64,000 nucleotides of DNA from Bacteroidales bacterium (GTDB lineage: Bacteria > Bacteroidota > Bacteroidia > Bacteroidales > UBA12077), in contig JANQHE010000037.1 of assembly GCA_028282785.1 (NCBI GenBank), forward strand, positions 206,856 through 270,855, given 5' to 3'. The position numbers and the translations under genes were made by a program. Under the pieces are notes generated by a model. That model saw only the letters and a program-made list of their open reading frames with translations. It was not told where the DNA came from and did not search any database. Below are positions 37,303-60,786 of the stretch, piece by piece; positions within the stretch are counted from its first letter, which is position 1; every line of letters starts with the position of its first letter.

Positions 37303-37560
37303 CCTACTCTAAACCATACCCAACCTCCTTTCTTTTTTGATTTATAGTTTATTCAATTAAAATTAGTTGGATTAATTCCAACGCAATAGTAGGAATCGGA
37401 CAATTTTTGATAATTGCTAATGCAATTCGAATTCTGTTTTACTCAATTCTAATTGTAATAGATTATCTAAGACCGGCGAGTACGTCAAATATTGTTGTGA
37501 TAGTAAAAAGAATGGTTACTGGCCTTACTGTAGATAAAGTTAAGCTTCTTATTATAAAAT
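37303..37560. repeat. ~258-bp intergenic direct repeat, copy 1 (contains module g, the SD and a degenerate micro-ORF)
   Basis: Aligns nearly colinearly with 38374..38630, sharing for example caattaaaattagttggat..aatcggacaat(a/t)tttgataattgctaatgcaattcgaattctgttttactcaattctaattgtaata. There is a partial third copy at 39473..39575. Confidence 0.8.
37356..37401 (-). promoter_or_regulatory. Island promoter-like module g
   Basis: Minus strand: GTCCGATTCCTACTATTGCGTTGGAATTAATCCAACTAATTTTAAT. It is followed 41 nt later by GGAGGT (37328..37323) and a decayed micro-ORF, ATG GTT TAG (37317..37309). Confidence 0.6.
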
Positions 37561-37562
37561 AA

Positions 37563-37673
37563 GAGGTTGTCCAAAAAGACTCGAAGACGTCATTGCGAAC
37601 CTGCCTTGCCGGCAGGCAGGCTTCGTCGTTCCTCCTCCTAATGACAGTAGGTTTTGACTTTTTGGACAACCTC
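37563..37673. repeat. MITE-like palindromic element, copy B (111 bp)
   Basis: GAGGTTGTCCAAAAAGAC...GACTTTTTGGACAACCTC with an internal cctgccttgccggcaggcagg. ORF 37463..37669 in the track is an artefact of this element. Confidence 0.65.
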
Positions 37674-37777
37674 AGTCAGGGTTATTTGCTATAGGATTTT
37701 TTAAATACCTATAATAATTAGGCTAAAGTCCATTAAAGTGAATTTTAGGTTTTGTTATGGTTATCTTGCCATATTGT

Positions 37778-38239
37778 CTACAGTCTATCGTATTCATTAC
37801 CGCAAGCCTGTTTCGCTTCTTCGAAAGTTTTCGGAGTATCTGATGATCTATATTCACTATCTGGACATATCCAGTGTCCAAAATGAGCTATTTTAAACTC
37901 ATCATTCTCAACTGGTTTAAGCTCGACAGTCCGCTTACCGTTTGTTGGTCGAACAAGCTCATATGTTGTGGTTGTGCCTACTTGCTTTATTGTTATAGTC
38001 TCATCTCCTACAGTACCAACTGAAACAATAAACTTTTTTCCTTCTGATTTGGCTTGCAAAAGTGCATCCCTATTATCTGGGTCAGTAGAGTATTGCCACC
38101 AAGAATGTACACTAGTGTTATCATCTTCTCCTTTATATCTCGCTTGACCTATGTTCCCAGCAATATAACAGTATGTACTGGAAGGTTTATTTTCGCGACC
38201 CGAACCAAGGTCATTGGTTATAAAATATGTTTTTGGCAT
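37778..38239 (-). CDS. Hypothetical protein (153 aa)
   Basis: ORF downstream of module h, a micro-ORF and a conserved hairpin. No signal peptide and no recognised motif. Confidence 0.5.
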   Translation of the reverse strand: MPKTYFITNDLGSGRENKPSSTYCYIAGNIGQARYKGEDDNTSVHSWWQYSTDPDNRDALLQAKSEGKKFIVSVGTVGDETITIKQVGTTTTYELVRPTNGKRTVELKPVENDEFKIAHFGHWICPDSEYRSSDTPKTFEEAKQACGNEYDRL

Positions 38240-38291
38240 TTTTCTTTCTTTAATTGTGTTTATTTTTATTTTCTTTTTAGCTTTTATTTAA

Positions 38292-38311
38292 AAGGTGTCA
38301 AACAACACCTT
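38292..38311 (-). promoter_or_regulatory. Conserved 5'-leader hairpin (attenuator/terminator-like), copy 1
   Basis: Minus-strand RNA is AAGGUGU-UGUUUG-ACACCUU followed by UUAAAUAAAAG. Its flanks are homologous to the copy at 56901..56920. Confidence 0.45.
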
Positions 38312-38360
38312 ATTTAAGTACTATTGATTCATTAACCATTAGTACCATAATATTTAATAG

Positions 38361-38384
38361 TTAAAATTGTACAACTCTACTCAT
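38361..38384 (-). CDS. SD-led micro-ORF, divergent copy (MSRVVQF*)
   Basis: GGAGGT at 38394..38389, a 4-nt spacer, then ATG AGT AGA GTT GTA CAA TTT TAA. The geometry matches the MIRAGP copies but the peptide has diverged. Confidence 0.4.
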   Translation of the reverse strand: MSRVVQF

Positions 38385-38630
38385 AGCAACCTCCTTTCTT
38401 TTTTTGATTAATAGTTTATTCAATTAAAATTAGTTGGATCAATTCAAGCGTGATAGTAAGAATCGGACAATATTTGATAATTGCTAATGCAATTCGAATT
38501 CTGTTTTACTCAATTCTAATTGTAATACGTTATCTAAGATTAGCGAGTAAGTCAAATACTGTAGTGATAGTGAAAAGAATAGTTAGTGATCTTACTGTAG
38601 GGAAATTTGACCTGCTTATATAAAATAATG
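38374..38630. repeat. ~257-bp intergenic direct repeat, copy 2 (contains module h, the SD and a micro-ORF)
   Basis: See 37303..37560. Confidence 0.8.
38423..38468 (-). promoter_or_regulatory. Island promoter-like module h
   Basis: Minus strand: GTCCGATTCTTACTATCACGCTTGAATTGATCCAACTAATTTTAAT. Confidence 0.6.
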
Positions 38631-38853
38631 ACTCGACTAAAAGTCCGTGCGAGTTGGTTAAGTTTTTTGTGTTTTTTTTATTTTATAAAATAAACTTGAA
38701 TGGATAAGTAATGTAAAAAGAATTTTACATTTTTATGTTTGAGTACACAACAAAACCTTGGACTGACGCCCAAGGCTATTGATAATGAAGCTTTGATGCA
38801 TAATTACTATCTAAATTGGTTGAATTATAACTTTTCTTTTTTAAGATTTTTTA

Positions 38854-39390
38854 TTATTCCATTTTAAATAACTCAAAAAAGTGCTCGTATGTATCCGCGT
38901 TTGATTTCAACTTACTTTTATTAAGATTTGTTCTTAATTTTTTATCCCCACTTACTCCATATTCATGATCTTCTGTATTCAGCACAATATGTGAAGCTTC
39001 ATGCACAAGTGTCCCCATTTGAGAATCCTCTCCTTTTTTATCAATTGTATAAAAATACGGACACAAGTATATTCCCTGTGCTTCGTTACCTGGATATGCA
39101 TATCCAAAATCTGTAGGGCCACAACTAGCTTCTTCCCCATTTTTAATTGGTGGCATCCTACTAATATAATCTTGGATCTTTGTATAACAATCAGCTAAAA
39201 GTTTTAATTCTCTATCACTAGATACACCCCAGTGCGTTTTTAAAAAATCTTTTTGTACTGATGTTAAATTATCAGGATTACGTAGAGCTTTAATAATCCT
39301 TCTGAGCCTATTAAAAGTTTTTACTATAATTTCTTCCAAGAGTGGTTTTTGATATACATTTAAATCTGTTCCTTCTCTTACTATTTGCAT
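38854..39390 (-). CDS. Aspzincin (M35-like, HExxH + GTxDxxYG-type) metalloprotease candidate
   Basis: GTLVHEASHIVLNTEDHEYG contains HExxH followed by T-E-D-H-E-Y-G. The downstream SNADTYEHFF resembles the NADSY segment of M35 enzymes. 178 aa with no signal peptide. An AGGAGA sits 8 nt upstream of the ATG. Confidence 0.55.
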   Translation of the reverse strand: MQIVREGTDLNVYQKPLLEEIIVKTFNRLRRIIKALRNPDNLTSVQKDFLKTHWGVSSDRELKLLADCYTKIQDYISRMPPIKNGEEASCGPTDFGYAYPGNEAQGIYLCPYFYTIDKKGEDSQMGTLVHEASHIVLNTEDHEYGVSGDKKLRTNLNKSKLKSNADTYEHFFELFKME

Positions 39391-39465
39391 ATTTAACTTC
39401 TCCTATTTAATTTATTAATATCGTATCTTTTATTGGTTTTTATTCGAGTTAATAAAGCCTATTTA

Positions 39466-39489
39466 CTACATTGGCCCTGCTCTAATCAT
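39466..39489 (-). CDS. SD-led micro-ORF encoding MIRAGPM*
   Basis: GGAGGT at 39499..39494, a 4-nt spacer, then ATG ATT AGA GCA GGG CCA ATG TAG. It lies 76 nt upstream of the M35-like gene start. Confidence 0.6.
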   Translation of the reverse strand: MIRAGPM

Positions 39490-39526
39490 AGCAACCTCCT
39501 TCCTTTTTTGATGAATAGTTTATTCA

Positions 39527-39572
39527 ATTAAAATTAGTTGGATTAATTCAAGCGTGATAGTAAGAATCGGAC
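39527..39572 (-). promoter_or_regulatory. Island promoter-like module i
   Basis: Minus strand: GTCCGATTCTTACTATCACGCTTGAATTAATCCAACTAATTTTAAT. Confidence 0.6.
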
Positions 39573-39856
39573 CAGGTTAATCTTTTTCTAACTTTCATAC
39601 TTTTACTTCTTATTGTTTTGCGATCATACAGTAAAGTATATGAGCATGTCGATTATTAAAAGTATTAAGCAATTCAGTTTTGCCTTTATAAAAACTATAC
39701 TTACTTCGACATGCCCGGTATGATAAGTAAAGTATGAGATAAACAGTTGGAGATTACATTAATTGATAGTTATGAATTCATCAAACTGAACTTATCTGAG
39801 AATATAGAACGTATAACTGTTTTATATTAACGGAGCGCCAGGTTTATGGAAAAATG

Positions 39857-40552
39857 CTATTCTGTTACCTTTTCTATTTCTTTTTTTACATCCGGAGTTT
39901 CTTTTGACTCTACCACTGTTCCTCCGTCTCCAATCTTTATTTTTGTATCACCAATTATTAACTCTGTTGATTTTTCTTTATTCATAGATTCGGTTAACTT
40001 ATCATTCATCTCTTTAATAAGATCAATAAATTCCTTTCGTGATTTTTCGCGTGCATCAAACTGATGTGCTTGTTCTTTCATTTCCTCTTTTTTCAATCGT
40101 TCGGTAGATTGAATTTTGTTTATCTCAACCTGCAACTGATGTTCTGATTTAGCAAGCCTTTCTTTACGTTCCTGTCTCCTGTCAACCAACATCGGATCTT
40201 CATCTTTACCTACCGATGCTTCTTTAATTACCATTATTAATGCCATTACAACGGGTGCAATCATACCAACAACCGGGGTAAAAGCTGACTCAGAAAGAAA
40301 GTAACCTGACATACAGGTAATTAATACCAATAGTACGGTTGTTGGCATTGCCCAACGTCCAACAAGAATAGCAACCATATTATTATTTTTCTGTTTTTGC
40401 TGTTCATTAGTATCCTGATCTGAATTAGCAGAAGGATTCCCAGTTTCAACATCACCCGGCCCATCATCTTGATTATTAATCACCTCATCATCAACAAAAT
40501 CATTGTTCACCTCATTATCAGTAAGATTATTATTAAGTTCATCCTTATTCAT
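39857..40552 (-). CDS. Membrane protein with an acidic N-terminal region, 2-3 TM helices and a C-terminal coiled coil
   Basis: TM block MVAILVGRWAMPTTVLLVLITCMSGYFLSESAFTPVVGMIAPVVMALIMVI. The track start at 40564 is a TTG that lies inside an SD. The likely real start is ATG 40552 (MNKDELNN), preceded by GGAGGT-AATT (40562..40557), identical to the micro-ORF SD context. Confidence 0.6.
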   Translation of the reverse strand: MNKDELNNNLTDNEVNNDFVDDEVINNQDDGPGDVETGNPSANSDQDTNEQQKQKNNNMVAILVGRWAMPTTVLLVLITCMSGYFLSESAFTPVVGMIAPVVMALIMVIKEASVGKDEDPMLVDRRQERKERLAKSEHQLQVEINKIQSTERLKKEEMKEQAHQFDAREKSRKEFIDLIKEMNDKLTESMNKEKSTELIIGDTKIKIGDGGTVVESKETPDVKKEIEKVTE

Positions 40553-40643
40553 AATTACCTCCAATTTTTATAATTCATTTTTTATGAAACATTTAAATTA
40601 TCTTCCTACTAATTCCCAGTTTTCTTCTGGTTTATTGAGTTAT

Positions 40644-40689
40644 TACAAATTTATTAAAGCTTAAGCTTTGTTTATAGTAAAGATCAGAC
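40644..40689 (-). promoter_or_regulatory. Island promoter-like module j (most divergent copy)
   Basis: Minus strand: GTCTGATCTTTACTATAAACAAAGCTTAAGCTTTAATAAATTTGTA. GTCyGAT, TACTAT and a TAAATTTG -7 box sit at exactly the same offsets as in the other nine copies. Confidence 0.5.
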
Positions 40690-40845
40690 AACAACCAAGT
40701 GCTTTCATCTTTTATAAGTTCCCTGTTACTATTTATTTTTGGAAGAATGATGGGAGTATAACATTCATATTTAGTATAAGCTGGCATATTAAATACGAAT
40801 TCTATATTTTTTACAACTTACCGTAAAAAGATTATCCCGATTATT

Positions 40846-42186: not shown

Positions 42187-42229
42187 TTGTAGGTTTAAAT
42201 ATTGAACTTGAATTTATATTAAATATTTT

Positions 42230-42583
42230 TTAACCAGACCTTAGGCTCTTGGTGAAATCCTCTATTAAGGATATAGATGCATTGGTTTTAACAAACCTGA
42301 TACCCGCATTTCTTCCCGAAACAGTACTATACATTTGGCTTGCACCAACTATTTCGCCATTGGCAGCTTTTAAAAGAAAGTAGTATTTCCCGTTAGAAGA
42401 TCTTTTTTTCTCAAAACAATCATCATCCAAAGAATTTTCCTGTACTGACTTTACACCTTTTAAACAATTCTGTTTTGTAGTGTATGCTTCTCCTACAAGG
42501 ATTTTTCTTCCGTTTTTAGATAGTAATCTGAACCGATATACCTTACCTGACTGGTATATCTGAAATTTTGATTTCGCTTTCAT
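42230..42583 (-). CDS. YegP-family (DUF1508) tandem-repeat protein
   Basis: Two repeats: FQIYQSGKVYRFRLLSKNGRKILVGEAYTTKQNCLKGVKSV and KYYFLLKAANGEIVGASQMYSTVSGRNAGIRFV. Confidence 0.7.
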   Translation of the reverse strand: MKAKSKFQIYQSGKVYRFRLLSKNGRKILVGEAYTTKQNCLKGVKSVQENSLDDDCFEKKRSSNGKYYFLLKAANGEIVGASQMYSTVSGRNAGIRFVKTNASISLIEDFTKSLRSG

Positions 42584-42767
42584 TTTTTTCTGTATTAGTT
42601 AATAAAAAATTAGGTTATTTAATTGATTATTTGATTTTTATATTATTTATCCTAAGAAATTTTCAAGCTTAAGTTTTTATTTAAACCCGAATTAAATATC
42701 AGTTGGTTATTAAAATATTACTAACGGTTGCGATTAAATGATCTTTATTAATTCCTTATAAACCATG

Positions 42768-46184: not shown

Positions 46185-46730
46185 CTAAGGTGTCATTCTT
46201 GAAATAATAAGATCAAGCATTTTTTGCAAACCTTCAGGTTTATCTTGCATGTTTGCTTCAACTCGAAATTGATATTTTGCCCCCATACTGGTTTTTCGAG
46301 TATTTTCTTTTGACTCACTAATTTTTCCCAGCATTTCTGTTTTCTTCAATGAAAACAGTTTTAGTTTTTTCATCTTATCTTCCTGATTACTATTATACTT
46401 ATTGGCATTTTCGATAGTTGTTTTCACCTCCAACTGAAAATCGACGGTAACCTTGTCAATCATTAATGAAGGAATAGGAAGTAAAGAAAGAAGTGGTGCT
46501 TTAACTGTTTCCTTGGCATAGGTAACAACTCCATCTTCTAATTTTTCTGCGATTGGGACATCAAAATCGATGGTTTTCAACTCTCCTTCATCATCGAACC
46601 CAATTAGTTTAATAAACTCATATGTACTCTCCGCTAAAGCGATCTGAGATTCCATAGTTGCACGAAACGGTGCACCAATAAGTTCTTTCATGGGCAATGA
46701 ACGAAGTTGATTTGCAACATTATTTTCCAT
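46185..46730 (-). CDS. Island family-1 protein (DUF2589-like), paralog 1
   Basis: LPMKELIGAPFRATMESQIALAESTYEFIKLIGFDD..APLLSLLPIPSLMIDKVTVDFQLEV..AKYQFRVEA..PEGLQKMLDLI. The same blocks occur in 47237.., 49052.. and 55284.., and more weakly in 46732... No signal peptide or TM helix. Confidence 0.6.
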   Translation of the reverse strand: MENNVANQLRSLPMKELIGAPFRATMESQIALAESTYEFIKLIGFDDEGELKTIDFDVPIAEKLEDGVVTYAKETVKAPLLSLLPIPSLMIDKVTVDFQLEVKTTIENANKYNSNQEDKMKKLKLFSLKKTEMLGKISESKENTRKTSMGAKYQFRVEANMQDKPEGLQKMLDLIISRMTP

Positions 46731-46731
46731 T

Positions 46732-47205
46732 TTATTTATCTTTTGGTATTACATTATTTGCAAAACTTTCGATAATACGCTGGATACCCTCCGGCGCATC
46801 ACCCTGTTTAAATTTCATCTTTAAATCAATCATATTCGTATCTCTACCAGATTTAACACCTCCTGAAGCAAAAGAAATATTAAAACTTGCACGATGAATT
46901 TCGTCACCTGCTTTTGTTATTTCCTTTTTTTTATCGATGCCATCAACCCTCAAACTCATATCAACTTCCAGCTCATCAAGTTCCATTCCCGTAGGTGTAA
47001 CGAGAGTAATTAAGGGAATATCAATAGATGTGTCATCTGAAATATTTATTCCCATTGAAATAGGATTTTGATCATCATCAAAGTAGCGGTCCAATAATTT
47101 AATATAAAATTTCTCAACGACATCTTGCGCTGCATTAACCGTATATTGTATTCCTTTAGCAATATCCGACAAGGTTTGTCCAGTTTTTTTATTTTCTTCT
47201 TTCAT
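46732..47205 (-). CDS. Island family-1 protein, divergent paralog 2
   Basis: IDIPLITLVTPTGMELDELEVDMSLRV..IDLKMKFKQGDAPEGIQRIIESF follows the same order of blocks. There is only a 1-nt gap to the next gene. Confidence 0.5.
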   Translation of the reverse strand: MKEENKKTGQTLSDIAKGIQYTVNAAQDVVEKFYIKLLDRYFDDDQNPISMGINISDDTSIDIPLITLVTPTGMELDELEVDMSLRVDGIDKKKEITKAGDEIHRASFNISFASGGVKSGRDTNMIDLKMKFKQGDAPEGIQRIIESFANNVIPKDK

Positions 47206-47236
47206 TTGTTTATATTTTTCTTAATTGTTTACGTTA

Positions 47237-47809
47237 TCATTTGTTTTCAACTTTTGGAACAAGACTAGCCTCTGTAAGAATATCTATAATCTTGCTTAAG
47301 GATTCCGGTTGTTCCTGTTTTTTTGCAACTACTTTAAAACTATATTTAGCACTCGTATCCGACGAGCGTGCATTAGCCGATTGATGTGTCAGGCTCGTTT
47401 CTATATTCATATTATCCTTTTCCACTTCAATTCGTCTTCCTTGCGAATCTTTAATGAATTGTTTTTCCTTTTTATTACTTGAAGTATGAATGCGTAAATC
47501 GAAGGCAACTTCCACATTCTCAATAGCTAGAGATGGCGGTTGCACCAACGCCAGATAAGGAAGGTCTACAGATATTTTACGTGATTTACCATTTGGATTT
47601 CCCTCATTGTCAACTTCATCAGATTCAAAAGCAAACGGGATCATTCGAACGTCTCCATTTTTATCTACGGCAACTTTATCCAGAAATTCTAACATTTCAT
47701 CGTTCATAATCGATTGAGCCTTGACAGCTGCTACGATCGGAGCAGCTACCATTTTTTCTATTGCAAGGGGTTTAATAACACCCGCTACTGATTCATCATT
47801 TTTAGCCAT
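47237..47809 (-). CDS. Island family-1 protein, paralog 3
   Basis: LAIEKMVAAPIVAAVKAQSIMNDEMLEFL..VDLPYLALVQPPSLAIENVEVAFDLRI..AKYSFKVVA..PESLSKIIDIL. Confidence 0.6.
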   Translation of the reverse strand: MAKNDESVAGVIKPLAIEKMVAAPIVAAVKAQSIMNDEMLEFLDKVAVDKNGDVRMIPFAFESDEVDNEGNPNGKSRKISVDLPYLALVQPPSLAIENVEVAFDLRIHTSSNKKEKQFIKDSQGRRIEVEKDNMNIETSLTHQSANARSSDTSAKYSFKVVAKKQEQPESLSKIIDILTEASLVPKVENK

Positions 47810-47829
47810 TATTTTTAATTTTAATGTAT

Positions 47830-48390
47830 TTATTCATTTTTGTGATATATTTTAGTTATGTGATCCTTTTTCGAATACCTCAATTTTTTACTATAGCGTA
47901 GTATTCGTTTGCAAAATGTGACAATTAAATCCCAAAACGATGGTATTTTTTGTAAATGACATTTTACATATTCTGTAATTTCTTCAACAACATCTTCGGT
48001 AAGGTCATTTTTATAATGTTCAAATTGAATCTTTAAATCTCTTTTCGATGTTTGTGTGGCATTTATAGTAAAGGCTGTTTTTTTAGCTTCTTCCTGAGTA
48101 TCATTTTTATATTCGATGAGCTTATTTTTTAATTTGAATCTCTTTAAAGGGAAACTAACGGATAATAACTCTAAATCATAAGTATATACTTGCATTGCTT
48201 TGGTCAAAATCGTTTCAGTATCAGCAGGCTTTGAAGATGCATTCTTTAAGTACTTCCTGTTATTTTCCAAATACCTTTCGACAACAGATTGCTTAAAGTG
48301 GGTTTCTGTTTTTTTAAGTTGCTTAAAAATATCTTGATTCCCTCTGGCTACAGCTATAAGTCCTTTAACACTTGAAATTCTTTTTCCCAT
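47830..48390 (-). CDS. Hypothetical protein (186 aa)
   Basis: ORF in the operon. The C-terminus contains a tandem RYSKKL/RYSKKD duplication. No recognised motif. Confidence 0.45.
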   Translation of the reverse strand: MGKRISSVKGLIAVARGNQDIFKQLKKTETHFKQSVVERYLENNRKYLKNASSKPADTETILTKAMQVYTYDLELLSVSFPLKRFKLKNKLIEYKNDTQEEAKKTAFTINATQTSKRDLKIQFEHYKNDLTEDVVEEITEYVKCHLQKIPSFWDLIVTFCKRILRYSKKLRYSKKDHITKIYHKNE

Positions 48391-48401
48391 TACTATTTTT
48401 A

Positions 48402-48911
48402 TTAAATTGACTGAACCCCAATAAAAAGATCTATGATTAAATCATCGATCGATTGATTTGGTGTTATTTTATTACGGTATATATTGTATATTGGGGTTAC
48501 AACCTGGAGGTTGTTTTCTGATATGTATTGGTGCAGTATATCATAAGCGGTATTTAAAAGCTCCGGATTTCCCTTGTGTGTTGCATAAATCCCATTCTCA
48601 AGTTGAAAGGTTTTAATAAACTTATAATCCCCTGTGTTAAAACTTTTTTCTAATTGGCTGATATTTTTATTTTTATATAAGCTATTCTTAATATCAACAG
48701 GAATCATAATTTCAATATCTAATATCTTCTTATCATTTTCGTCATTTATATTATGGACGGTTGTTATAATACCTCCGTTTTGGTTTAATTTGTGTTTTTT
48801 TATGAAAGCAGTTAAATTGGCAAATTCCTTATTCACTTCAACTTCAAGAACTTCTTTTCTACATGCCAAAAGATTTTCTAATTTAATTTCCGCATTCTCA
48901 TATATATCCAT
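48402..48911 (-). CDS. GyrI-like/AraC-effector-binding-domain-like small-molecule-binding protein
   Basis: 169 aa. The pattern ..GGIITTVHN..IEIMIPV.. and ..GIYATHKGNPELLNTAYDILHQYISENNLQV..PIYNIY resembles the duplicated beta-alpha-beta-beta GyrI-like fold. Confidence 0.4.
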   Translation of the reverse strand: MDIYENAEIKLENLLACRKEVLEVEVNKEFANLTAFIKKHKLNQNGGIITTVHNINDENDKKILDIEIMIPVDIKNSLYKNKNISQLEKSFNTGDYKFIKTFQLENGIYATHKGNPELLNTAYDILHQYISENNLQVVTPIYNIYRNKITPNQSIDDLIIDLFIGVQSI

Positions 48912-48934
48912 AATGATAAAGTGTTTTTTTGATT

Positions 48935-49038
48935 GAGGTTGCCGAAAGATTTTTGCCTATCTTAATCTGCCCGGTTCAAGTAGTTTTGATAGGCTAATTA
49001 TAAACAATACAAACCCTACTTTCATCTTCGACAACCTC
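48935..49038. repeat. MITE-like palindromic element, copy C (104 bp)
   Basis: GAGGTTGCCGAAAGAT...ATCTTCGACAACCTC. It is inserted between 49052..49618 and 48402..48911. Confidence 0.55.
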
Positions 49039-49051
49039 ATTTTAAACTAAA

Positions 49052-49618
49052 TTATGCAGTTGCTGTTTGTGCTCCTCCTTGTATAGGAGTAATACAACTT
49101 GCGATAATATCCATTAACTTACTCATACCCTCTGCAGGAGGCTGCTGAGATCCATTAACAACAACTTTATATGTTGCTGATTGGTCAGATGACCTGGTTC
49201 TTTCTTCAGAACTTTTACAAGAAGCTTTGAAAGCAACACTAAAGCCCCAAACTGAACCTGACACACCTAAAGAAGCCTCTCTAGAACTTGATGTAGTTGT
49301 AGTATCTGATGTTTTAACTTCCATTGTAAATTCAACATTTATTGAATCAATCAACAATGAAGGTATTGGAACCAGCCCAATTAAAGGGGCCCTTACCTGA
49401 ATAGGCATTACACTTACCTTACCTGTTGTACCATCTGTAACAGTTTGGTCTAATTTAAACTCTAAAATTCGTGTTGTACCGTCATCGTTAAAAGCAAGTA
49501 AATCCACATACTTTATAAATTCATCTGCTAATAATATTTGTGACTCACAAGCAGCTTTAAACGGATTCGCGATTAGTTCGCGCATCGGTAAACTGGCAAA
49601 AGAACTAGCTACGCTCAT
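49052..49618 (-). CDS. Island family-1 protein (DUF2589-like), paralog 4
   Basis: LPMRELIANPFKAACESQILLADEFIKYVDLLAFND..APLIGLVPIPSLLIDSINVEFTMEV..ATYKVVV..AEGMSKLMDII, with a Ser/Thr-rich insert. Confidence 0.6.
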   Translation of the reverse strand: MSVASSFASLPMRELIANPFKAACESQILLADEFIKYVDLLAFNDDGTTRILEFKLDQTVTDGTTGKVSVMPIQVRAPLIGLVPIPSLLIDSINVEFTMEVKTSDTTTTSSSREASLGVSGSVWGFSVAFKASCKSSEERTRSSDQSATYKVVVNGSQQPPAEGMSKLMDIIASCITPIQGGAQTATA

Positions 49619-49966
49619 AATTTTTGATTTTTAATTTTTTTCTCTATTGAGAAATGTTATTTATTATTTGTTATTATTATTCGTACATTGAAAAACAACT
49701 ATCATTTTTAATGTATATTCTGTTGTATTTTATTAGCATGTACCAGCTATTTATTTCTTTGTTATGTCATATCCACCCCCCTCTCTTGTTTAAAATGTTC
49801 AACATACTTCATGCACCCACCCATTTAAACAATCCTTATTCAATTGCAGGTTAGGTCAACAAAGCTACCCGTATGAACAAATTGTTCAGATTGGACTTTA
49901 ATTACAATTGATATTGTTAATTTGCTTTGTTTTGGTTTATCAAGTTTACCTGTAAAAAGGCGAAGT

Positions 49967-52461: not shown

Positions 52462-52509
52462 TTAAATTGTTTTAAGTTTGACAATTATTTTATTCAGTTT
52501 AAATTATAT

Positions 52510-52555
52510 ACCAAAAGTAGTTAGTAAGAATCGCTCTTAATAGTAATAATCGGAC
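52510..52555 (-). promoter_or_regulatory. Island promoter-like module a
   Basis: Minus strand: GTCCGATTATTACTATTAAGAGCGATTCTTACTAACTACTTTTGGT. No SD or micro-ORF follows. The main ATG lies 51 nt after the -7 box. Confidence 0.6.
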
Positions 52556-52844
52556 ACCCACGTTTTTAAGTAAATATTTATTGTTGAAACTTCTATTTTA
52601 GAAAGAGGTATTAACGCTGTATACCCGACACAATGATCAGAACAAACCATTTCACAATAAGTAAAAGACTAATTATAAACTTAAAAAAGAAAAGGGCCCC
52701 CAAGAACGGATACCCTTATAAAATCGAAGTTTTTTAGACCTATGAGAGGCTTTACTTTAACAGTTTTACTGTAGATTTAAAACCAGTTTTTTTAATACAA
52801 GAATGAATATTTTATCTGATTACAAATAAGTTGCACACTCATTT

Positions 52845-55283: not shown

Positions 55284-55775
55284 TTACACTTTCACAGGTT
55301 CCATCGATTTGGCCATAATCTCGGTAAGTTTTTCCATTCCAGCTGCCTGTGGCTCTCGCTCGGCTATCATTTTAATATCGTATTTGGCCGTTGGATCTGA
55401 AGGCCTGCTACGTTTACTGGTAGCCTTAACTGTTTTTAACTCCGGGTCGTTGGGATTTACCTCAAGGCTAAGATCTACAGTTACTTGTTTCATAGTTAAA
55501 GCAGAAACGCTAACCAAGGATATAAGTGGTGCCTCTACTTCCTGCTCTACCTGTTCAACATCATCTTCTCCCTTTTTTATTAAACGATTAAAAAGAACTT
55601 TCAATACACTTGTCTTTCCGTTTTGCTCTCTTCCATCTTCATTACTATTTCCAAAAGCTAGATTTTTTACGGTTTCAATGTATTTATCGATCATTTTTGA
55701 TTGTACACTAAGCGCTGCTATAAACGGACTACTTAGCAATTTTACTATTTCAGAATCCTTTGTTTGCTTTTCCAT
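55284..55775 (-). CDS. Island family-1 protein (DUF2589-like), paralog 5
   Basis: LLSSPFIAALSVQSKMIDKYIETVKNLAF..APLISLVSVSALTMKQVTVDLSLEV..AKYDIKMIA..AAGMEKLTEIM. Confidence 0.55.
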   Translation of the reverse strand: MEKQTKDSEIVKLLSSPFIAALSVQSKMIDKYIETVKNLAFGNSNEDGREQNGKTSVLKVLFNRLIKKGEDDVEQVEQEVEAPLISLVSVSALTMKQVTVDLSLEVNPNDPELKTVKATSKRSRPSDPTAKYDIKMIAEREPQAAGMEKLTEIMAKSMEPVKV

Positions 55776-55890
55776 TGTTTGTTGTTTAAGTAAATTTGAT
55801 TTGAATTAATTTTAAAACCGTATAAATGGCTTATTGCTTATCATTTCATGACATTTCACATTTTATGGGTTGATAAGCTTAATAAGTTTT

Positions 55891-55988
55891 AAACCCGTTT
55901 GATGAATGTATCGATCATTATTACCAGTATATAAAATGGAAAACCTCCAATGGTTGTAATAGTCTTTTAGCATTCATCAAACCGGTTT
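55891..55988. repeat. 18-bp inverted repeat enclosing an orphan SD in the leader of 55284..55775
   Basis: AAACCCGTTTGATGAATG (55891..55908) and CATTCATCAAACCGGTTT (55971..55988) are complementary at 17/18 positions. The 62-nt loop contains GGAGGT (55948..55943, minus strand) with no ATG at the usual spacing. Confidence 0.5.
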
Positions 55989-56002
55989 AATAATTAACCT
56001 AT

Positions 56003-56048
56003 ATCAAAAGTAGTGGGTATTACGTTGTTTTAATAGTATATATCGGAC
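56003..56048 (-). promoter_or_regulatory. Island promoter-like module b
   Basis: Minus strand: GTCCGATATATACTATTAAAACAACGTAATACCCACTACTTTTGAT. Confidence 0.6.
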
Positions 56049-56276
56049 GTGAACAGAAGATTATTTTAGTCGGAAACCATAAACGCAAGTTGTAATACAT
56101 CTAAAAAAAGAAAGCGCAATTCCACCTGTCTGCTGACAGTATAAATTGCACTTAGCTTTTGGGGTTACTTTATATACTACTTTTGAAGGCTTAATTCTGT
56201 ATTCTTAAATTACATGTATTCCAGAATCAAAATTGTATTGGAACGGACAATATATTCGATACAGCCGGGGTTAATA

Positions 56277-56891
56277 TTACCGTTTTTCTAGAAAACCATC
56301 GCCTGAAATCTTGTAACCTTTATGTAACCATACTCCTAAATCTTCTAACCAAATGTGGTTATTTTTATCTATTATATCATAAACTTCTTTCCATGTTCCG
56401 TCGTCGCTATTAATATTTTTTCTTGGTTTGAATTCAACAAAACATTTTTCAAAATTTTCACAATCTATTTCCGGATATTTATTGAGTATTGGTACAATAT
56501 TATTATGTGCAAGCATTATTTTAGGGTAGTTTATTAGTATTTCTCTGAATTTCATTGCATTCTCCTTATTCCAAATTTTTAAATTATTGTATAGAAATCC
56601 ACTTAAAAAAAAAGGTGCATCATCCTTTGTTTCAGGTTCAGGTTTCCAATCTACAATTCTACTTGCAACTAAATCATTCTTTCCCCCAAAGTCTGTTCCT
56701 ATTATAGCACAGGTATCTGACATTATAATATCTCTAAAATTGTTATTCTTCCCCCAATTGTTAAGCCAATCCTCTGTTGGCTTGTCGCCCCAGTCTTTTT
56801 TTTCTTGTCCTTCGTAAAATTCTTTCCTTTTCGGGCCTTCTTCTTCTTTTTTATCTTCCATTTTATTTCTTTTTATTGGTTTTAATTGCAT
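56277..56891 (-). CDS. Hypothetical protein (204 aa, or 194 aa from the internal Met at 56861)
   Basis: The track start ATG at 56891 lies only 9 nt after the conserved leader hairpin, so MEDKKEEE at 56861 is the more likely start. No recognised motif. Confidence 0.45.
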   Translation of the reverse strand: MQLKPIKRNKMEDKKEEEGPKRKEFYEGQEKKDWGDKPTEDWLNNWGKNNNFRDIIMSDTCAIIGTDFGGKNDLVASRIVDWKPEPETKDDAPFFLSGFLYNNLKIWNKENAMKFREILINYPKIMLAHNNIVPILNKYPEIDCENFEKCFVEFKPRKNINSDDGTWKEVYDIIDKNNHIWLEDLGVWLHKGYKISGDGFLEKR

Positions 56892-56900
56892 CTTTAATAA

Positions 56901-56920
56901 AAGGTGCCTATCAACACCTT
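56901..56920 (-). promoter_or_regulatory. Conserved 5'-leader hairpin (attenuator/terminator-like), copy 2
   Basis: Minus-strand RNA is AAGGUG-UUGAUAGG-CACCUU followed by UUAUUAAAG. The flanks CTTcAAATAAGGTGTTG..CACCTTTTAttAAAG match copy 1. Confidence 0.45.
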
Positions 56921-57117
56921 ATTTGAAGAAATTATTCAAAAAATAATATAGTTGAATTTTATTTATCTTTTTTACCTGGTGTAACACAGTCAGCCGACAA
57001 GGCCGGTTTGTGATTCTCTATGAAACAACTTTTTATAATTTTACCACAAGCTTGCTTGCTGCAAGCAGGGTTTTATAAATAAAACTATTTTTTTGAACAC
57101 TCTCTAATAAATATCTT

Positions 57118-57138
57118 TTAAGGCCCTGCTCTTATCAT
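57118..57138 (-). CDS. SD-led micro-ORF encoding MIRAGP*
   Basis: GGAGGT at 57148..57143, a 4-nt spacer, then ATG ATA AGA GCA GGG CCT TAA. The ATG is 41 nt after the -7 box of module c. Confidence 0.6.
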   Translation of the reverse strand: MIRAGP

Positions 57139-57176
57139 AATAACCTCCTTCTTTAATTGGTTTAAAATTTACTTAC

Positions 57177-57222
57177 ATCAAAAGTAGTTTGTAATAAACC
57201 CCTATGATAGTATATACTGGAC
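57177..57222 (-). promoter_or_regulatory. Island promoter-like module c
   Basis: Minus strand: GTCCAGTATATACTATCATAGGGGTTTATTACAAACTACTTTTGAT. Confidence 0.6.
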
Positions 57223-57424
57223 ATGCTCTTTTTTTACTATTGTTCAATATTTGAAATCTTTTTAAGGTTAAAACGAAAGGTATCCTCTGCTTAACTTATA
57301 TTGTGATTATTTCTATCCTGAACCGGGTTTAATTGTGTATTATTACCAAAGATTAAGGATTCTTGCAGCTATACTTTTTATTATTTGATAAAGAACGGAT
57401 AACATATCCGGCCCAACGGAGTAT

Positions 57425-57877
57425 TTATTCAGTGTCTATTTTAAAAAACAACATAACTTCATATTTGGTAGTTACACTTTCGGTTATAACACTCCACATT
57501 GCTCTTGCCGTTGGTTTTTTTTGTGCATCCTGAGGTTCTGTATATTTAGCACTTGGTACTTCTCTCCAGGTTGAGCCTGCCTTCTTAGCAAAGTGCATTT
57601 CATACGCCTTATAATCACTAATTTGTTTATCTCTTTTACCCAAACACAAAATAATATTAAAATCTTCTTCTTCTTTATCACTTACATCAAACGATATTCC
57701 TTTCCCTTCGCACATTTCCTGCAATATTACTGCAATATCAGTTGCATAATGTTCTTTTTTTTGTGCCTGGTTGTTTTTTTTATAATATTCTTTCAGTTTT
57801 GTTTGAAGTGTTGTCAAGCTAAGTTTCTTGTTTATCGCATAATCAAAACAATTTAAATATTTCTTTTTTGCTTCCAT
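57425..57877 (-). CDS. Hypothetical protein (150 aa)
   Basis: The ATG lies 23 nt after the -7 box of module d, giving a short A-rich leader. No recognised motif. Confidence 0.5.
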   Translation of the reverse strand: MEAKKKYLNCFDYAINKKLSLTTLQTKLKEYYKKNNQAQKKEHYATDIAVILQEMCEGKGISFDVSDKEEEDFNIILCLGKRDKQISDYKAYEMHFAKKAGSTWREVPSAKYTEPQDAQKKPTARAMWSVITESVTTKYEVMLFFKIDTE

Positions 57878-57897
57878 TTTATTTTTTATTGATTTAG

Positions 57898-57943
57898 TTC
57901 AAAAGTAGCTGGTAATAAACCCCTATGATAGTATATATCGGAC
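57898..57943 (-). promoter_or_regulatory. Island promoter-like module d
   Basis: Minus strand: GTCCGATATATACTATCATAGGGGTTTATTACCAGCTACTTTTGAA. Confidence 0.6.
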
Positions 57944-57993
57944 ATATTCTTTCTTATTATCATCCATTGTTTGAAATCTCATTAAAGTAAAAA

Positions 57994-58058
57994 GAGGATG
58001 TCCAAAAAGTCAAAACCCAACGTCATTACTGACATCTTCGGGTCTTTTGAACACCTTC
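57994..58058. repeat. MITE-like palindromic element, short copy D (65 bp)
   Basis: GAGGATGTCCAAAAAGTC...GTCTTTTGAACACCTTC. It sits inside an intergenic repeat whose sister copy (57223..57424) is ~50 bp shorter at this point. Confidence 0.45.
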
Positions 58059-58287
58059 TTACTGGTATTGTGAGTATTTCTATCTTGAACCGGGCTTAAC
58101 TGTATATTACCAGAGACAAAAAATTCTTATATCCATGTTATTTGTCATTGATAAGGACCGGATAACATATCCGATCCAGCCGGAGATAATTCCATATTAT
58201 AATTAAAATAGAAAAGGTTATCTTTATAAATTAGATAACCTTTTTCTAATGCTTAATTTAAAATAATGCAATACCTTTTTATGATAA

Positions 58288-59226
58288 TTATTCCAGAGGA
58301 AATTTATCATAAAAGGCAAAGCCTCCCTTTACAGAATCTTCATGTGCATATTCCTCTCCTGTCATTCTATGAAATAAATCCTTAAGCTTAGCACTGGTAA
58401 ACAGATTACCATGTCTCAATTCTCCTAAAGCCATGTTTTTTAGTAAAACGTAGTTAGAAGCTTCTTTTCTATCTTTTCCCTTAAAAACTACTCCCTGATT
58501 ATTAGCTCCATCTACATAAAATGCATATTGTGGTTGATGTTCATCGGTCCACCTATATGGCCCCATCCCCGCAGAACATACCAGGTGAATATCAAATTCC
58601 TCATTCTTTAACCTTTCCTTTGTGTTATCCAAACAAATTTCCAATCCATATACTATGTCATCAATTTTAAATATACCCCCACCGTTAAATCCTGAAATAT
58701 TTGATTCCGTTCCGGCTTCATCGACTTCAGGTTTTATCAAATTTCCTATCTCGGAAAAATCCAAATCAGAGATATTCTCTTTAATTACAACAAAACAATT
58801 TTCTCCTGCTGTAATTTGATCGTACTTAACTCCTCCTTTTAATACAAGAGCTGAGTTAAGAATTACCCTTTCATTAGCTGGATTAAGATAGCTAACAACA
58901 ACTGTCCCAAAAATAAACAGCCAGTCTTTATAAATATTTTTACCAGTTTCTACACTCATTAATCTAAATATTTCCGGTATAACATTTAAATCTTCATAAT
59001 AGCCTTTTTTAGGCCTGAAGAAAAACTCAGGTGCCATAAAAACTTTTAGTGTGTCTTCTGAAGAATAATTTTGTGCCCAATTTTCATTCGCATACATAAT
59101 TGCTTTTTCTAAAACCAATAATCTTGCTATGTAATCTTCTTTTTGATCTTCAAGGCCAACATAAGTTTCCGGGCCTCCACTTACATAAGGGGAAAAATCT
59201 GCAAATGTGATATATTTATATTTCAT
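58288..59226 (-). CDS. Carbon-nitrogen-hydrolase (nitrilase-superfamily)-like protein
   Basis: Candidate E-K-C triad: FMAPEFFF, VVIKENISDLDF and YGLEICLDN. 312 aa with no signal peptide. Confidence 0.5.
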   Translation of the reverse strand: MKYKYITFADFSPYVSGGPETYVGLEDQKEDYIARLLVLEKAIMYANENWAQNYSSEDTLKVFMAPEFFFRPKKGYYEDLNVIPEIFRLMSVETGKNIYKDWLFIFGTVVVSYLNPANERVILNSALVLKGGVKYDQITAGENCFVVIKENISDLDFSEIGNLIKPEVDEAGTESNISGFNGGGIFKIDDIVYGLEICLDNTKERLKNEEFDIHLVCSAGMGPYRWTDEHQPQYAFYVDGANNQGVVFKGKDRKEASNYVLLKNMALGELRHGNLFTSAKLKDLFHRMTGEEYAHEDSVKGGFAFYDKFPLE

Positions 59227-59414
59227 ATTTTTAAATTTTTTAATTTGTTATTTTTAACTTATCCTAATAGACTATATAACAATCTATTATATTACCAAAT
59301 CATTAATGAATGTAATTTTAAGTATAATTTAATGATATATTATACTACAAAACTTTATATAATTATAATTTTCGGCTTAGACTAACTCAACGAAGATATT
59401 TTATTTACCAGCTT

Positions 59415-60650
59415 CTATTTTTTTCTGTTTCGGGTTGGAATCTCTACATCTAACCATATATCCCAATAATCTTCACTTAATTTCCCATTAACCTCTTTTA
59501 AACTCTCCCCTTCTTTTTTCCATACTCCAAACCTATCGCTTTTATCATATTCACTATCACAATGTAAAAGCACACCTCCTTCAATTAGATCTATACTATT
59601 CTCATTATGATCTGTTGATGCTGACAATATAATATGAATATCCGGACGTATTTCCTCTTTATTATAATCCGGACAATTCTCCAAAACTTTATCCTGATGA
59701 TCTTTACAAATCTCCAGTATTATTTGATGTGAACTGTCCTCCATACGATAATTCCATTGACTCTTTGGTCCTTTTACAAAAAACCGGCTATTTGGGTCCA
59801 TACCAATATAATGTAACTTTTGATCAGGTTTAGGAGGATGCATTAAATAAGTCCCGGTAATTTCTATATACTCCTCATGTTTACATAGTTTGGTCACGCT
59901 ACCATCTCTAAAAACCTGAGCGCAATTCATCAAAAACGTTGTTTCGGGATTTTGCAATGTTTCCTTTAAATCCTCATTGGTGTAATAACCAGATCTGTAT
60001 ATTTCAGGAGCTTGAACGGATGCTAACTGAGCTTCTTTAGGATTAATTCTTGATAAAATATTTTTATAGCGTATATCTCGGGCTATTTGCGGATCAAAAT
60101 CCTTAAATAATAAATTCTCATTCTTTTGAATCTTTTTAAATTCTTCTAATTTTGAGCTTCTTACTATTGTTCCGGGTATTATATAACAACCTTCCGGACG
60201 ATTGAATTTAAGATTCTCCATTAACTGATCTACTTTTATTACATTTTCCTCATTCAGTGCCCTGGAAGACAACATATAAGTTACATCATTATTATTAGCA
60301 TTTTTCTTGAGCCAATCCTCAACCTGCTCACTGCTCTCAAGGCTTGAAGCATTTCCTGTAAAATCTTGCCATACGTTTGAAAAATTGCCTCTCGGATATT
60401 CTTTAATGCCCTTATCCATATAAGATTTCATATCTAAAACGACCTCTTTCTTGGTTTTTGTTGCTTTTTCTGCAAAAAAATATTCAGGTGCCAGAATAAT
60501 AAAGGGTTTTTTATTAATTTTATTAGCTGCATGCATAGCATTCTCAAATATTTCGATTCTCTCATCAACAGATTTAACCATTCCCGACTGTTCCGATGTT
60601 TTCAGTTTTATCATTAGAATATTATATTCTTTTGATCCTTCTTTTTCCAT
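59415..60650 (-). CDS. Carbon-nitrogen-hydrolase-like protein, paralog
   Basis: IILAPEYFFAEK, LCKHEEYIE and QIILEICKDHQD. 411 aa with no signal peptide. Confidence 0.45.
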   Translation of the reverse strand: MEKEGSKEYNILMIKLKTSEQSGMVKSVDERIEIFENAMHAANKINKKPFIILAPEYFFAEKATKTKKEVVLDMKSYMDKGIKEYPRGNFSNVWQDFTGNASSLESSEQVEDWLKKNANNNDVTYMLSSRALNEENVIKVDQLMENLKFNRPEGCYIIPGTIVRSSKLEEFKKIQKNENLLFKDFDPQIARDIRYKNILSRINPKEAQLASVQAPEIYRSGYYTNEDLKETLQNPETTFLMNCAQVFRDGSVTKLCKHEEYIEITGTYLMHPPKPDQKLHYIGMDPNSRFFVKGPKSQWNYRMEDSSHQIILEICKDHQDKVLENCPDYNKEEIRPDIHIILSASTDHNENSIDLIEGGVLLHCDSEYDKSDRFGVWKKEGESLKEVNGKLSEDYWDIWLDVEIPTRNRKK

Positions 60651-60715
60651 TGTATAAATTTTAATTCATTTACATACTTCTTTAACAGCGTTATTTATTA
60701 ACATATTTTAATACC

Positions 60716-60748
60716 TTAACCATTAAAATTGGGCCCTGCTCTAATCAT
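60716..60748 (-). CDS. SD-led micro-ORF encoding MIRAGPNFNG*
   Basis: GGAGGT at 60758..60753, a 4-nt spacer, then ATG ATT AGA GCA GGG CCC AAT TTT AAT GGT TAA. The ATG is 41 nt after the -7 box of module e, and the stop is 65 nt before the main ATG at 60650. Confidence 0.6.
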   Translation of the reverse strand: MIRAGPNFNG

Positions 60749-60786
60749 AATTACCTCCTTCTTTATTTAGTTTATCATTTACTTAG

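Follow-up and report, generated by a model that had tools for sequence, protein, structure and literature searches.

The locus and its leaders

We describe a repeated leader element in a genomic island of a Bacteroidales bacterium, located in a stretch of 64,000 nucleotides of contig JANQHE010000037.1 (assembly GCA_028282785.1), hereafter called the window. The element combines an unusually strong Shine-Dalgarno (SD) sequence with a micro-open reading frame (micro-ORF) which, in its intact copies, starts with the peptide MIRAGP. The window has a GC content of 29-37%, all its long open reading frames (ORFs) are on the minus strand, and the presence of a SusC/SusD pair at 24.0-28.6 kb confirms that the host belongs to the Bacteroidota. 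An initial annotation of this DNA had listed perfect GGAGGT hexamers on the minus strand at 60758, 57148, 39499, 38394 and 37328, each with an ATG 4-5 nt downstream, another one at 40562 before the ATG at 40552, and an orphan copy at 55948 with no nearby ATG. All seven sites exist and every coordinate proved correct; five of the seven SDs have the ATG of a micro-ORF 3-5 nt downstream, the ATG at 40552 opens an ORF of 231 codons, and only the site at 55948 is devoid of an ATG.

Three of the five leader copies, which are all on the minus strand, are intact. The core at 60716-60764 contains the SD AAAGAAGGAGGT (60753-60764), the spacer AATT and the micro-ORF ATGATTAGAGCAGGGCCCAATTTTAATGGTTAA encoding MIRAGPNFNG* (60716-60748); the gene of a 411-aa protein (59415-60650) follows 65 nt further downstream, and an identical copy is found in a syntenic locus, L075 (loci other than the window are designated here by L numbers). 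The core at 57118-57154 presents the SD AAAGAAGGAGGT (57143-57154), the spacer TATT and the micro-ORF ATGATAAGAGCAGGGCCTTAA encoding MIRAGP* (57118-57138), 226 nt upstream of an ORF at 56277-56891 whose likelier start is Met11 (56861). In the third core (39466-39505), the SD AAGGAAGGAGGT (39494-39505) and the spacer TGCT precede the micro-ORF ATGATTAGAGCAGGGCCAATGTAG encoding MIRAGPM* (39466-39489), 75 nt upstream of an Aspzincin_M35 gene (38854-39390), and the identical sequence is present in an independent read assembly (L086). The pairing energies of these three SDs with the anti-SD (SD-ASD energies) are -14.0, -13.8 and -17.0 kcal/mol, respectively. In the two other copies the micro-ORF has decayed and the SD, AGAAAGGAGGT, is perfect, with an energy of -17.5 kcal/mol in both cases: at 38361-38399, the SD (38389-38399) is followed by the ORF MSRVVQF* (38361-38384) and lies upstream of the gene of a 153-aa protein (37778-38239); at 37309-37333, the SD (37323-37333) is followed, because of an indel, by MV* (37309-37317), then by an ORF of 68 aa (36937-37143) and by a Peptidase_C58 gene (36193-36846). 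The genes behind the five leaders thus encode a Peptidase_C58 homologue, an Aspzincin_M35 protease and three proteins without family match.

The window contains 33 copies of the hexamer GGAGGT (29 on the minus strand), compared with 13.7 +/- 3.8 in shuffled sequences; AAGGAGGT occurs 7 times against 1.6 expected, and GGAGGT-N3-5-ATG 7 times against 0.94 expected, a count reached by none of 100 shuffles. One of these seven arrangements, GGAGGT-N3-ATG at 199-188, was considered as the SD of a truncated gene and discarded: its hexamer (194-199) encodes an in-frame Gly-Gly of an ORF starting further upstream, so that the real SD-led starts of the window are restricted to the island. Among the 55 main ORFs, GGAGG precedes a single start (40552) and AGGAG, at a spacing of 9, one more (39390). 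The A-rich starts devoid of SD which the initial annotation had described elsewhere in the window are the rule for all main ORFs other than these two. Its view that SD-led starts are exceptional in this DNA is borne out, for this one 64-kb window, both by these counts and by the contrast of pairing energies with the main genes described below.

A repeated promoter-leader cassette

The five leaders align with each other over about 110 nt and then diverge fully, which means that they are paralogous copies of one repeat and represent one evolutionary invention within the window, not five. The family of SD-led leaders proposed earlier is thus real as far as its five sites are concerned, but these are all copies of one promoter-leader cassette and not independent cases; in the same way, their confinement to the island is true within the window, but the same element precedes unrelated genes in at least seven other Bacteroidia-type contigs.

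Upstream of the leaders stands a promoter-like unit (repeat family D1) present in ten copies in the island, between 37 and 63 kb. The shared part reads TGTCCGAT-N4-TACTATCA-N17-CTAnTTTTGAT; five of the ten units continue into an SD leader and the five others lead directly into ordinary A-rich gene starts. The unit TGTCCGATATATACTATCA-N17-CTACTTTTGAT at 60784-60833 (minus strand) feeds the leader at 60758, and the nine other copies are located, on the same strand, at 37353-37402, 38420-38469, 39524-39573, 40641-40690, 52507-52556, 56000-56049, 57174-57223, 57895-57944 and 62505-62554. Seven of the ten contain a perfect TAnnTTTG, the consensus of the -7 box of the primary sigma factor of Bacteroidetes (PMC7366714). 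All ten have in common an upstream box, GTCCGAT-N4-TACTAT(C/T)A, about 19 nt upstream of this -7 box. It stands where the usual -33 element would be, which suggests an activator-dependent promoter. At the upstream edge of the island lies an AraC-family regulator, split or encoded by two genes (62964-63832, minus strand; DUF6597 at 63323-63832 and HTH_18/HTH_AraC at 62964-63320). The same AraC gene pair occupies the edge of the syntenic island L075, which shows the same arrangement of promoter boxes and a further copy of the box upstream of the AraC genes. The AraC-family protein is, by inference only, a candidate activator for the GTCCGAT-N4-TACTAT box, and the island appears to be arranged as a regulon around the shared promoter-like units.

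The SD core starts 29-30 nt after the -7 box, that is about 18-24 nt from the 5' end of the mRNA as predicted from the promoter consensus, and the leader SDs lie 90-500 nt upstream of the main ATG. A strong SD in this position near the predicted 5' end is what all copies have in common. A terminator-like hairpin followed by a T-run is found at 60885-60908 (minus strand), just upstream of the promoter copy 60784-60833, and a second one at 38754-38777, after the M35 gene; such hairpins between the units indicate that the cassettes are separate transcription units. Two similar hairpins with T-runs, AAGGTGTTG...CACCTTTTA, lie inside two leaders (38286-38311 and 56896-56920, minus strand), 40-50 nt before the likely main starts; they may be attenuators or captured terminators.

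Extended pairing with the 16S rRNA

The leader SDs are complementary to 9-11 nt of the 3' tail of Bacteroidia 16S rRNA, with the consensus (A)GAAAGGAGGT. For these calculations we used the tail UCACCUCCUUUCU, a reconstruction which is neither taken from this genome nor printed in PMC13000457, and which fits the residue numbers C1543, U1544 and U1541 given there. In 13 of 14 leaders, from the window and elsewhere, the SD-ASD energy lies between -13.6 and -17.7 kcal/mol, and only one weakened copy described below, L075b, is at -10.6 kcal/mol. The contrast with the 55 main genes is clear: their median is -1.8 kcal/mol and the best of them, 40552, reaches -10.7 kcal/mol, to be compared with -13.8 to -17.5 kcal/mol for the five leaders of the window.

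Energies below -13 kcal/mol define the exceptionally strong SDs of the rpsU class, which are read preferentially by ribosomes lacking bS21, the long SD helix clashing sterically with this protein (PMC9976891, PMC13000457). The natural Bacteroidia mRNAs reported to depend on the anti-SD are only those of ribosomal-protein genes such as rpsU and rpsR, and the extended-SD class is so far described in Bacteroidia only for such genes. The leaders studied here resemble rpsU of Flavobacterium johnsoniae and other Bacteroidota in having a rare SD below -13 kcal/mol (9-11 bp here) among genes otherwise without SD. They differ from it in preceding non-ribosomal genes, in having an SD that drives a micro-ORF, in occurring as several copies per locus, and in showing no evident feedback loop; moreover, the helix comprises 9-11 bp instead of 13 bp, and its distance to the start codon is about 3 nt shorter. 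The island contains no ribosomal-protein gene, the leader SD driving an ORF of six codons, and for this reason we do not count the element as part of the rpsU circuit. The initial annotation suggested selective translation, possibly by ribosomes whose anti-SD is free; these pairing energies make this a reasonable and plausible hypothesis.

The island contains two other SD sites. The main ORF at 39857-40552 opens with the SD-led start GGAGGTAATTATG (40550-40562, minus strand) and encodes an acidic N-terminus, two predicted transmembrane helices and a coiled coil. Its start region resembles the leader core (GGAGGTAATTATGAATAAGG versus GGAGGTAATTATGATTAGAG), and its energy of -10.7 kcal/mol is the one mentioned above as the strongest of the 55 main genes. 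An in-frame Met59 with a typical A-rich leader, AAACAGAAAAATAATAATATG, is present in the same ORF, which may therefore produce two isoforms: a long SD-dependent one with the acidic N-terminal extension and an SD-independent one. The orphan GGAGGT (55943-55948, minus strand), which has no start codon, has an energy of -10.5 kcal/mol and is located about 50 nt into the predicted transcript of promoter 56000-56049, upstream of a DUF2589 gene (55284-55775). It sits in the loop, of about 60 nt, of an inverted repeat of 14-15 bp (55971-55985 / 55894-55908), CCGGTTTGATGAATG ... CATTCATCAAACGGG, and is conserved in L075.

A micro-ORF conserved at the peptide level

The three intact micro-ORFs of the window have the form ATG AT(T/A) AGA GCA GGG CC(A/T/C), followed by 0, 1 or 4 codons, and within the shared codons only the third bases of the Ile and Pro triplets differ. 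In the six-frame translation of the whole window, RAGP appears only in these three micro-ORFs, and the 17,700 aa of the main ORFs do not contain it at all. Together with the copies at 11 other loci, 15 copies are available, all encoding M-I-R-[A/G]-[G/S]-P: I-R-A-G-P in 14 of them and I-R-G-S-P in one. The codons vary at synonymous sites, with ATT, ATC or ATA for Ile, AGA, AGG or CGC for Arg, GCA, GCT or GCC for Ala, GGG, GGA or GGT for Gly, and all four codons for Pro. Codon positions 1 and 2 are fixed, apart from the synonymous AGA/CGC exchange and the switch from A-G to G-S, and third positions are free; the spacer and the 3' flank of the micro-ORF are not conserved. In every copy, only the initiator Met precedes the core. 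The ORFs have 6-24 codons, with a tail of 0-18 residues after the Pro, and their stop is 64-226 nt from the main start, separated from it by a sequence which is not conserved and is near-pure A/T in several copies.

The copies found without any constraint on the peptide agree with this picture: the three paralogues of the window, L075b (found by synteny) and a copy encoding MIRGSPY (L002b, found by its SD and ATG only). When residue 2 was left free in a scan of metagenomes, it was Ile in 3 of 3 low- or mid-GC hits. The pattern of substitutions indicates that MIRAGP/MIRGSP is conserved at the peptide level across genomes, and we consider it very likely that the micro-ORF is translated and selected for its peptide.

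Copies in other genomes

A scan of one genome per species with the pattern GGAGGT-N3-6-ATG ATH MGN GCN GGN CC returned 24 loci. The high-GC matches are ordinary gene starts or lie inside coding sequence. The seven low-GC matches are the only subset with the full architecture, i.e., an A-rich tract, GAAAGGAGGT, 3-4 nt, and MIRAGP followed by 0-13 residues, in an intergenic position upstream of a gene of the same orientation. Six of them are labelled Bacteroidia and come from Prolixibacteraceae (two), Marinilabiliaceae, Marinifilaceae, Bacteroidales and unclassified Bacteroidetes; the seventh, L010, is labelled Desulfobacterales but has a GC content of 36%. From the metagenome scan came three further copies, located in contigs of low or intermediate GC content (L046, L056 and L066); the L046 copy, closely related to the cassette of the window, precedes a patatin gene.

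The syntenic island L075 (assembly GCA_028279845.1) has its MIRAGP leader before an orthologous gene of 394 aa. It carries a second leader, L075b, before a gene of 354 aa which the window lacks, with a weakened SD (AGAGGT; -10.6 kcal/mol) and GGA as Gly codon. A search of the retrieved loci for SD-ATG combinations, with no constraint on the peptide, gave L002b in Marinilabiliaceae bacterium JC017 (RHGE01000039.1, 5003-5045, plus strand): GAAAGGAGGT-TACA-ATG ATT CGC GGA AGT CCA TAT TAG, which encodes MIRGSPY*. This copy is upstream of the gene of a PixA-like inclusion-body protein and about 950 nt from a canonical MIRAGP* leader of the same contig. JC017 is a cultured strain and thus offers a possible experimental system. 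An all-against-all BLASTP comparison of the proteins encoded behind the leaders found no shared homology, so that the leader is a portable module and not part of one gene family.

Several searches gave background or nothing. The high-GC MxRAGP matches of the metagenome scan were rejected as family members and treated as background: they are N-termini of IS3 OrfA or lie inside apparent coding sequences of the opposite strand. Many of these high-GC IS3 OrfA genes have an SD-led M-[P/A]-R-A-G-P-[R/K]-K-V, with RAGP at residues 3-6 of a real protein (metagenome contigs L027, L029, L036, L037, L041, L047-L049, L051, L052, L054, L070 and L071). Scans of viral contigs gave one match for the motif and one for a control with reversed codon order, a comparison which is uninformative. 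Homologue searches with the 411-aa and M35 proteins returned near-identical relatives only. The string 'MIRAGP' was not found in the searchable literature, and related searches returned no description of such leaders.

The spread of the cassettes raises the question of their origin. They could have been acquired horizontally from SD-using bacteria, the SD and the mini-ORF being functionless leftovers, relics of a ribosome binding site in a host blind to SDs. MIRAGP leaders do occur in the SD-using contigs L056 and L066, the DUF2589 clusters of SD-using organisms (L081-L083) carry an SD at every gene, and the effector-like genes behind the leaders vary between close relatives. We regard this origin as very improbable for the following reasons: the main genes of the island present the typical A-rich starts without SD and are thus adapted to the host, the SD and the micro-ORF have been kept in at least 8 Bacteroidia-type lineages with synonymous turnover, and in the window the flanks of the SD are less well conserved than the SD itself.

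Comparison with SecM and other arrest peptides

The conserved peptide coincides with the core of a known class of arrest peptides. SecM ends in GIRAGP; across its homologues no residue other than Ile162, Arg163 and Pro166 is invariant, and the arrest is attributed to the RAG/P module, with the upstream residues tuning it (PMC10951299). RAGP, from E. coli SecM, and RGSP, from that of Mannheimia succiniciproducens, are experimentally validated arrest cores (PMC10987492), and RAGP is among the tetrapeptides most strongly avoided in bacterial proteomes, including those of Bacteroidota (PMC12992588). Other SecM- or RAPP-like relatives that serve for comparison are ApdA/ApdP (RAPP) and B. subtilis YwcI (RAGP).

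I-R-A-G-P is the part of SecM nearest to the peptidyl-transferase centre, and the Ile, Arg and Pro invariant in SecM are also invariant in the micro-ORF. The core R-[A/G]-[G/P/S]-P of the SecM/RAPP family, with its essential Arg and Pro, is found in 15 of 15 intact copies, and the sole non-synonymous variant, I-R-G-S-P, ends in the Mannheimia core RGSP. In our view, nothing else speaks as strongly for selection of the peptide through an action at the peptidyl-transferase centre as the match to the core taken together with the identity of this only variant. As in SecM, the ORF precedes its presumed target gene and is read in the same direction. The differences are also marked. The whole micro-ORF is Met plus the core, without the segment of about 10-17 residues that occupies the tunnel, without signal sequence and without membrane anchor, a composition that leaves no room for force-dependent release. 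Instead of sec or yidC genes, those found downstream encode C58 and M35 peptidases, a patatin, a PixA-like protein and proteins without assignment, and the ribosomes of the host lineage normally ignore SDs. Lacking a tunnel segment, a localisation signal and a sec gene, the element does not belong to the SecM/RAPP family as defined. We consider it probable, with a good margin of doubt, that translation of the micro-ORF causes ribosome arrest. Its conservation as an arrest-core peptide gives a concrete way for its translation to matter.

A translated micro-ORF could also act in a manner other than arrest, as a decoy, through an active released hexapeptide, or by delivering ribosomes to the main start through re-initiation or scanning. 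The conserved peptide, the strong SD and the sequence AGGAGA found 8-9 nt before the ATG of four downstream genes speak for such roles. However, the variable tail of 0-18 residues after the Pro means that the released product is not conserved, a distance of 64-226 nt between the stop and the main start is too long for coupling, and the conserved part matches a known arrest core exactly; a role of this kind thus seems quite improbable. The four genes in question follow MIRAGP leaders and start at 39390 in the window, and at 6128 in L002, 3462 in L011 (minus strand) and 1225 in L016 (minus strand). Their AGGAGA sequences have energies of -7.3 to -9.3 kcal/mol, which is unusual among Bacteroidia genes, and they might also be tuned to ribosomes with a free anti-SD.

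A possible ribosome-parking module

Putting these features together, we propose the following scenario. Transcription would start from the island-specific promoter, with its -7 box TAnnTTTG and the upstream box GTCCGAT-N4-TACTAT, to which an activator, for example the neighbouring AraC-family protein, probably binds. At about 18-24 nt from its predicted 5' end, the RNA would expose (A)GAAAGGAGGU, able to pair with 9-11 nt of the 16S tail, followed after 3-4 nt by AUG AUH AGR/CGC GCN GGN CCN. As the anti-SD of Bacteroidia is normally buried by bS21, bS18 and bS6, initiation at the micro-ORF would need a free anti-SD, as for rpsU, and the initiating 30S subunits would be those lacking or losing bS21. 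A ribosome reaching Gly5 would adopt the RAG/P configuration which in SecM prevents peptide-bond formation. The stalled 70S would occupy about the first 60 nt of the mRNA, masking both its 5' end and its own start codon, and since the five-residue chain stays inside the tunnel, a pulling force would be unable to release the stall. The likeliest output would be a protection or stabilisation of the transcript, as described for the STAB-SD and ermC, giving more of the downstream effector-like product when ribosomes with a free anti-SD are present. The element would then be an SD-dependent, arrest-programmed ribosome-parking module placed at the 5' end of mRNAs and controlling effector genes. Taken as a whole, this chain of events has in our estimation slightly less than an even chance of being correct. 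A stabilising output gated by a free anti-SD, considered by itself, is a more tentative proposal. Translation and arrest, the dependence on ribosomes free of bS21, and the sign and mechanism of the downstream effect are all inferred.

Several points weigh against this scenario. The total of 24 loci returned by the genome scan is near a rough estimate of the number expected by chance. The table of codons across genomes is partly biased by ascertainment, since for most copies the scan pattern allowed synonymous codons only. Two copies of the window without the peptide, MSRVVQF* and MV*, still keep a perfect SD, which indicates that the peptide is dispensable for at least some copies. In L056 and L066, MIRAGP leaders are found in contigs whose ordinary genes use SDs, so that the SD need not signal a special pool of ribosomes. 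Finally, most of the tested segments containing RAGP gave no arrest in PURE translation systems, and the arrest by SecM requires contacts with the tunnel up to 17 residues back (PMC10987492); a chain of five residues without such contacts may therefore stall weakly or not at all.

The stabilising output proposed here has precedents in other bacteria: in the STAB-SD of cry3A, binding of the 30S near the 5' end stabilises the mRNA, and stalling in the ermC leader has the same effect (PMC4113751). The likeness with cry3A of Bacillus thuringiensis and with ermC consists in an SD of the type GAAAGGAGG near the predicted 5' end of a long leader and far from the main start, in the position upstream of toxin or high-expression genes, and in a ribosome held at the 5' end as the proposed protector. 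Unlike in the STAB-SD, an ATG follows the SD after 3-5 nt with a conserved frame (five of seven SDs of the window and all copies elsewhere), and the host is a Gram-negative member of the Bacteroidia. Being apparently translated, the element is not a member of the STAB-SD class.

The sites where the SD stands without the peptide, i.e., the orphan at 55948, the decayed copies and a AGAAAGGAGG-ATG-AAA-TAG element in L080, fit the idea that docking is the basic function and that the arrest prolongs it. They also bring to mind another possibility, an element of the STAB-SD type in which the extended SD binds the 30S near the 5' end and the short ORF lets the ribosome terminate quickly, the peptide being irrelevant. 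It would account for the perfect extended SD kept in the copies MV* and MSRVVQF* and for the SD kept in the orphan and in L080 (ATG AAA TAG), and the leader consensus GAAAGGAGG resembles the STAB-SD sequence of cry3A. It leaves unexplained why distant genomes have retained M-I-R-A-G-P despite synonymous substitutions, AGA to CGC among them, and why the lone non-synonymous variant is the other SecM core, RGSP, and we judge it improbable.

The main rival to ribosome parking is a conditional sensor, an upstream ORF (uORF) at which ribosomes would stall only under translation stress, such as a ribosome-targeting compound, a low level of Pro-tRNA or the loss of an elongation factor or of a rescue factor. 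Once stalled, the ribosome would remodel the leader RNA or block a Rho-dependent or intrinsic terminator and so switch on the downstream toxin-like gene, as in toiL-topAI, erm and cat. We rate this scenario as rather unlikely. Stalling-sensing uORFs that control a toxin gene are indeed known (toiL, PMC12121999), several leaders present stable hairpins, including the terminator-like ones with a T-run at 38286-38311 and 56896-56920, and the leaders of L002, L011 and L016 are strongly structured. Like the micro-ORFs described here, those of E. coli toiL-topAI and of the erm, cat and cmlA leaders have 5-10 codons and precede a toxin or resistance gene, the output being set by the position of the stall. 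However, the latter need a defined alternative structure or Rho site and an external inducer, whereas no conserved structure was found among our 14 leaders and the peptide resembles an arrest core that is independent of inducers. When the footprint of a Gly5-stalled ribosome is masked, the predicted accessibility of the main start in these leaders hardly shifts, and in no consistent direction (for instance 0.67 to 0.70, 0.62 to 0.64 and 0.46 to 0.36). The stretch of 64-226 nt between micro-ORF and gene is conserved neither in sequence nor in length or structure, being near-pure A/T behind the leaders at 60758 and 39499 and in L046, and an Rfam scan of 34-64 kb (E<=1) gave no relevant match. 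With no consistent shift in accessibility and no matching Rfam family, a classical attenuator finds no support in these predictions, although some leaders do contain terminator-like hairpins.

Returning to ribosome parking, the element combines one defining feature of each of three systems: SecM/RAPP, the rpsU circuit and the STAB-SD. In a lineage whose ribosomes as a rule take no notice of SDs, it points to a pared-down means of holding a ribosome on an mRNA. The arrest by SecM and RAPP peptides is thought to need a tunnel-filling segment besides the RAG/P core. A conserved natural ORF made only of Met and the core would mean that the core acts alone or that a five-residue chain is used differently. 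Similarly, an equally strong multi-copy family of SDs before effector-like genes would give the idea of specialised ribosomes a physiological output. The boldest form of the proposal, that the six-codon ORF arrests autonomously without any tunnel sequence, is initiated in Bacteroidia only by ribosomes lacking bS21, and represents a second specialised-ribosome regulon beyond rpsU/rpsR, is on the unlikely side; were it true, the composition of the ribosome would be coupled to the expression of effector or toxin genes. ORFs of six codons escape gene callers, and GAAAGGAGGT-N3-4-ATGATHMGNGCNGGNCC provides a simple handle for their search.

Cargo of the island and additional observations

The cargo of the island looks like secreted or injected effectors. 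Between 36193 and 62460 are found the Peptidase_C58 homologue (YopT-like), the Aspzincin_M35 protein, a patatin phospholipase and, judging by its N-terminal sequence, a possible serine protease (61247-61933); a DUF1508 protein is also present. The close relative L075 does not have the same cargo as the window. Searches of the island with NCBIfam and PADLOC returned nothing except the patatin, identified as a phospholipase effector. The 68-aa ORF located between the decayed leader at 37328 and the C58 gene (36937-37143, minus strand) encodes a very basic, Cys-rich protein, MEKDNKKKKCKTCGQERPCPCEH...KGKRAKRKQ, for which no Pfam match was found.

Six paralogues of DUF2589 were counted in the island, and five are confirmed by Pfam: four in an array at 46185-49618, which further includes a weak match to DUF5085 and an ORF without match, and one at 55284-55775. 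An AlphaFold model built from the five paralogues was unusable (pLDDT 47). Elsewhere, DUF2589 clusters are found in SD-using bacteria, next to a C58-like gene (L081-L083), and in gut Bacteroides, by Mfa-like fimbrial genes and an AraC regulator (L084 and L085); the two gut Bacteroides loci have no such leaders. In L080, a relative with 81% identity, the leader of the DUF2589 operon (3086-3110, plus strand) contains AGAAAGGAGG-AAT-ATG AAA TAG, a near start-stop element with an energy of -16.3 kcal/mol, which has been lost from the homologous region of the window (49619-49966). Lastly, the effector-like cargo includes three related proteins, at 51874, 59226 and 60650.

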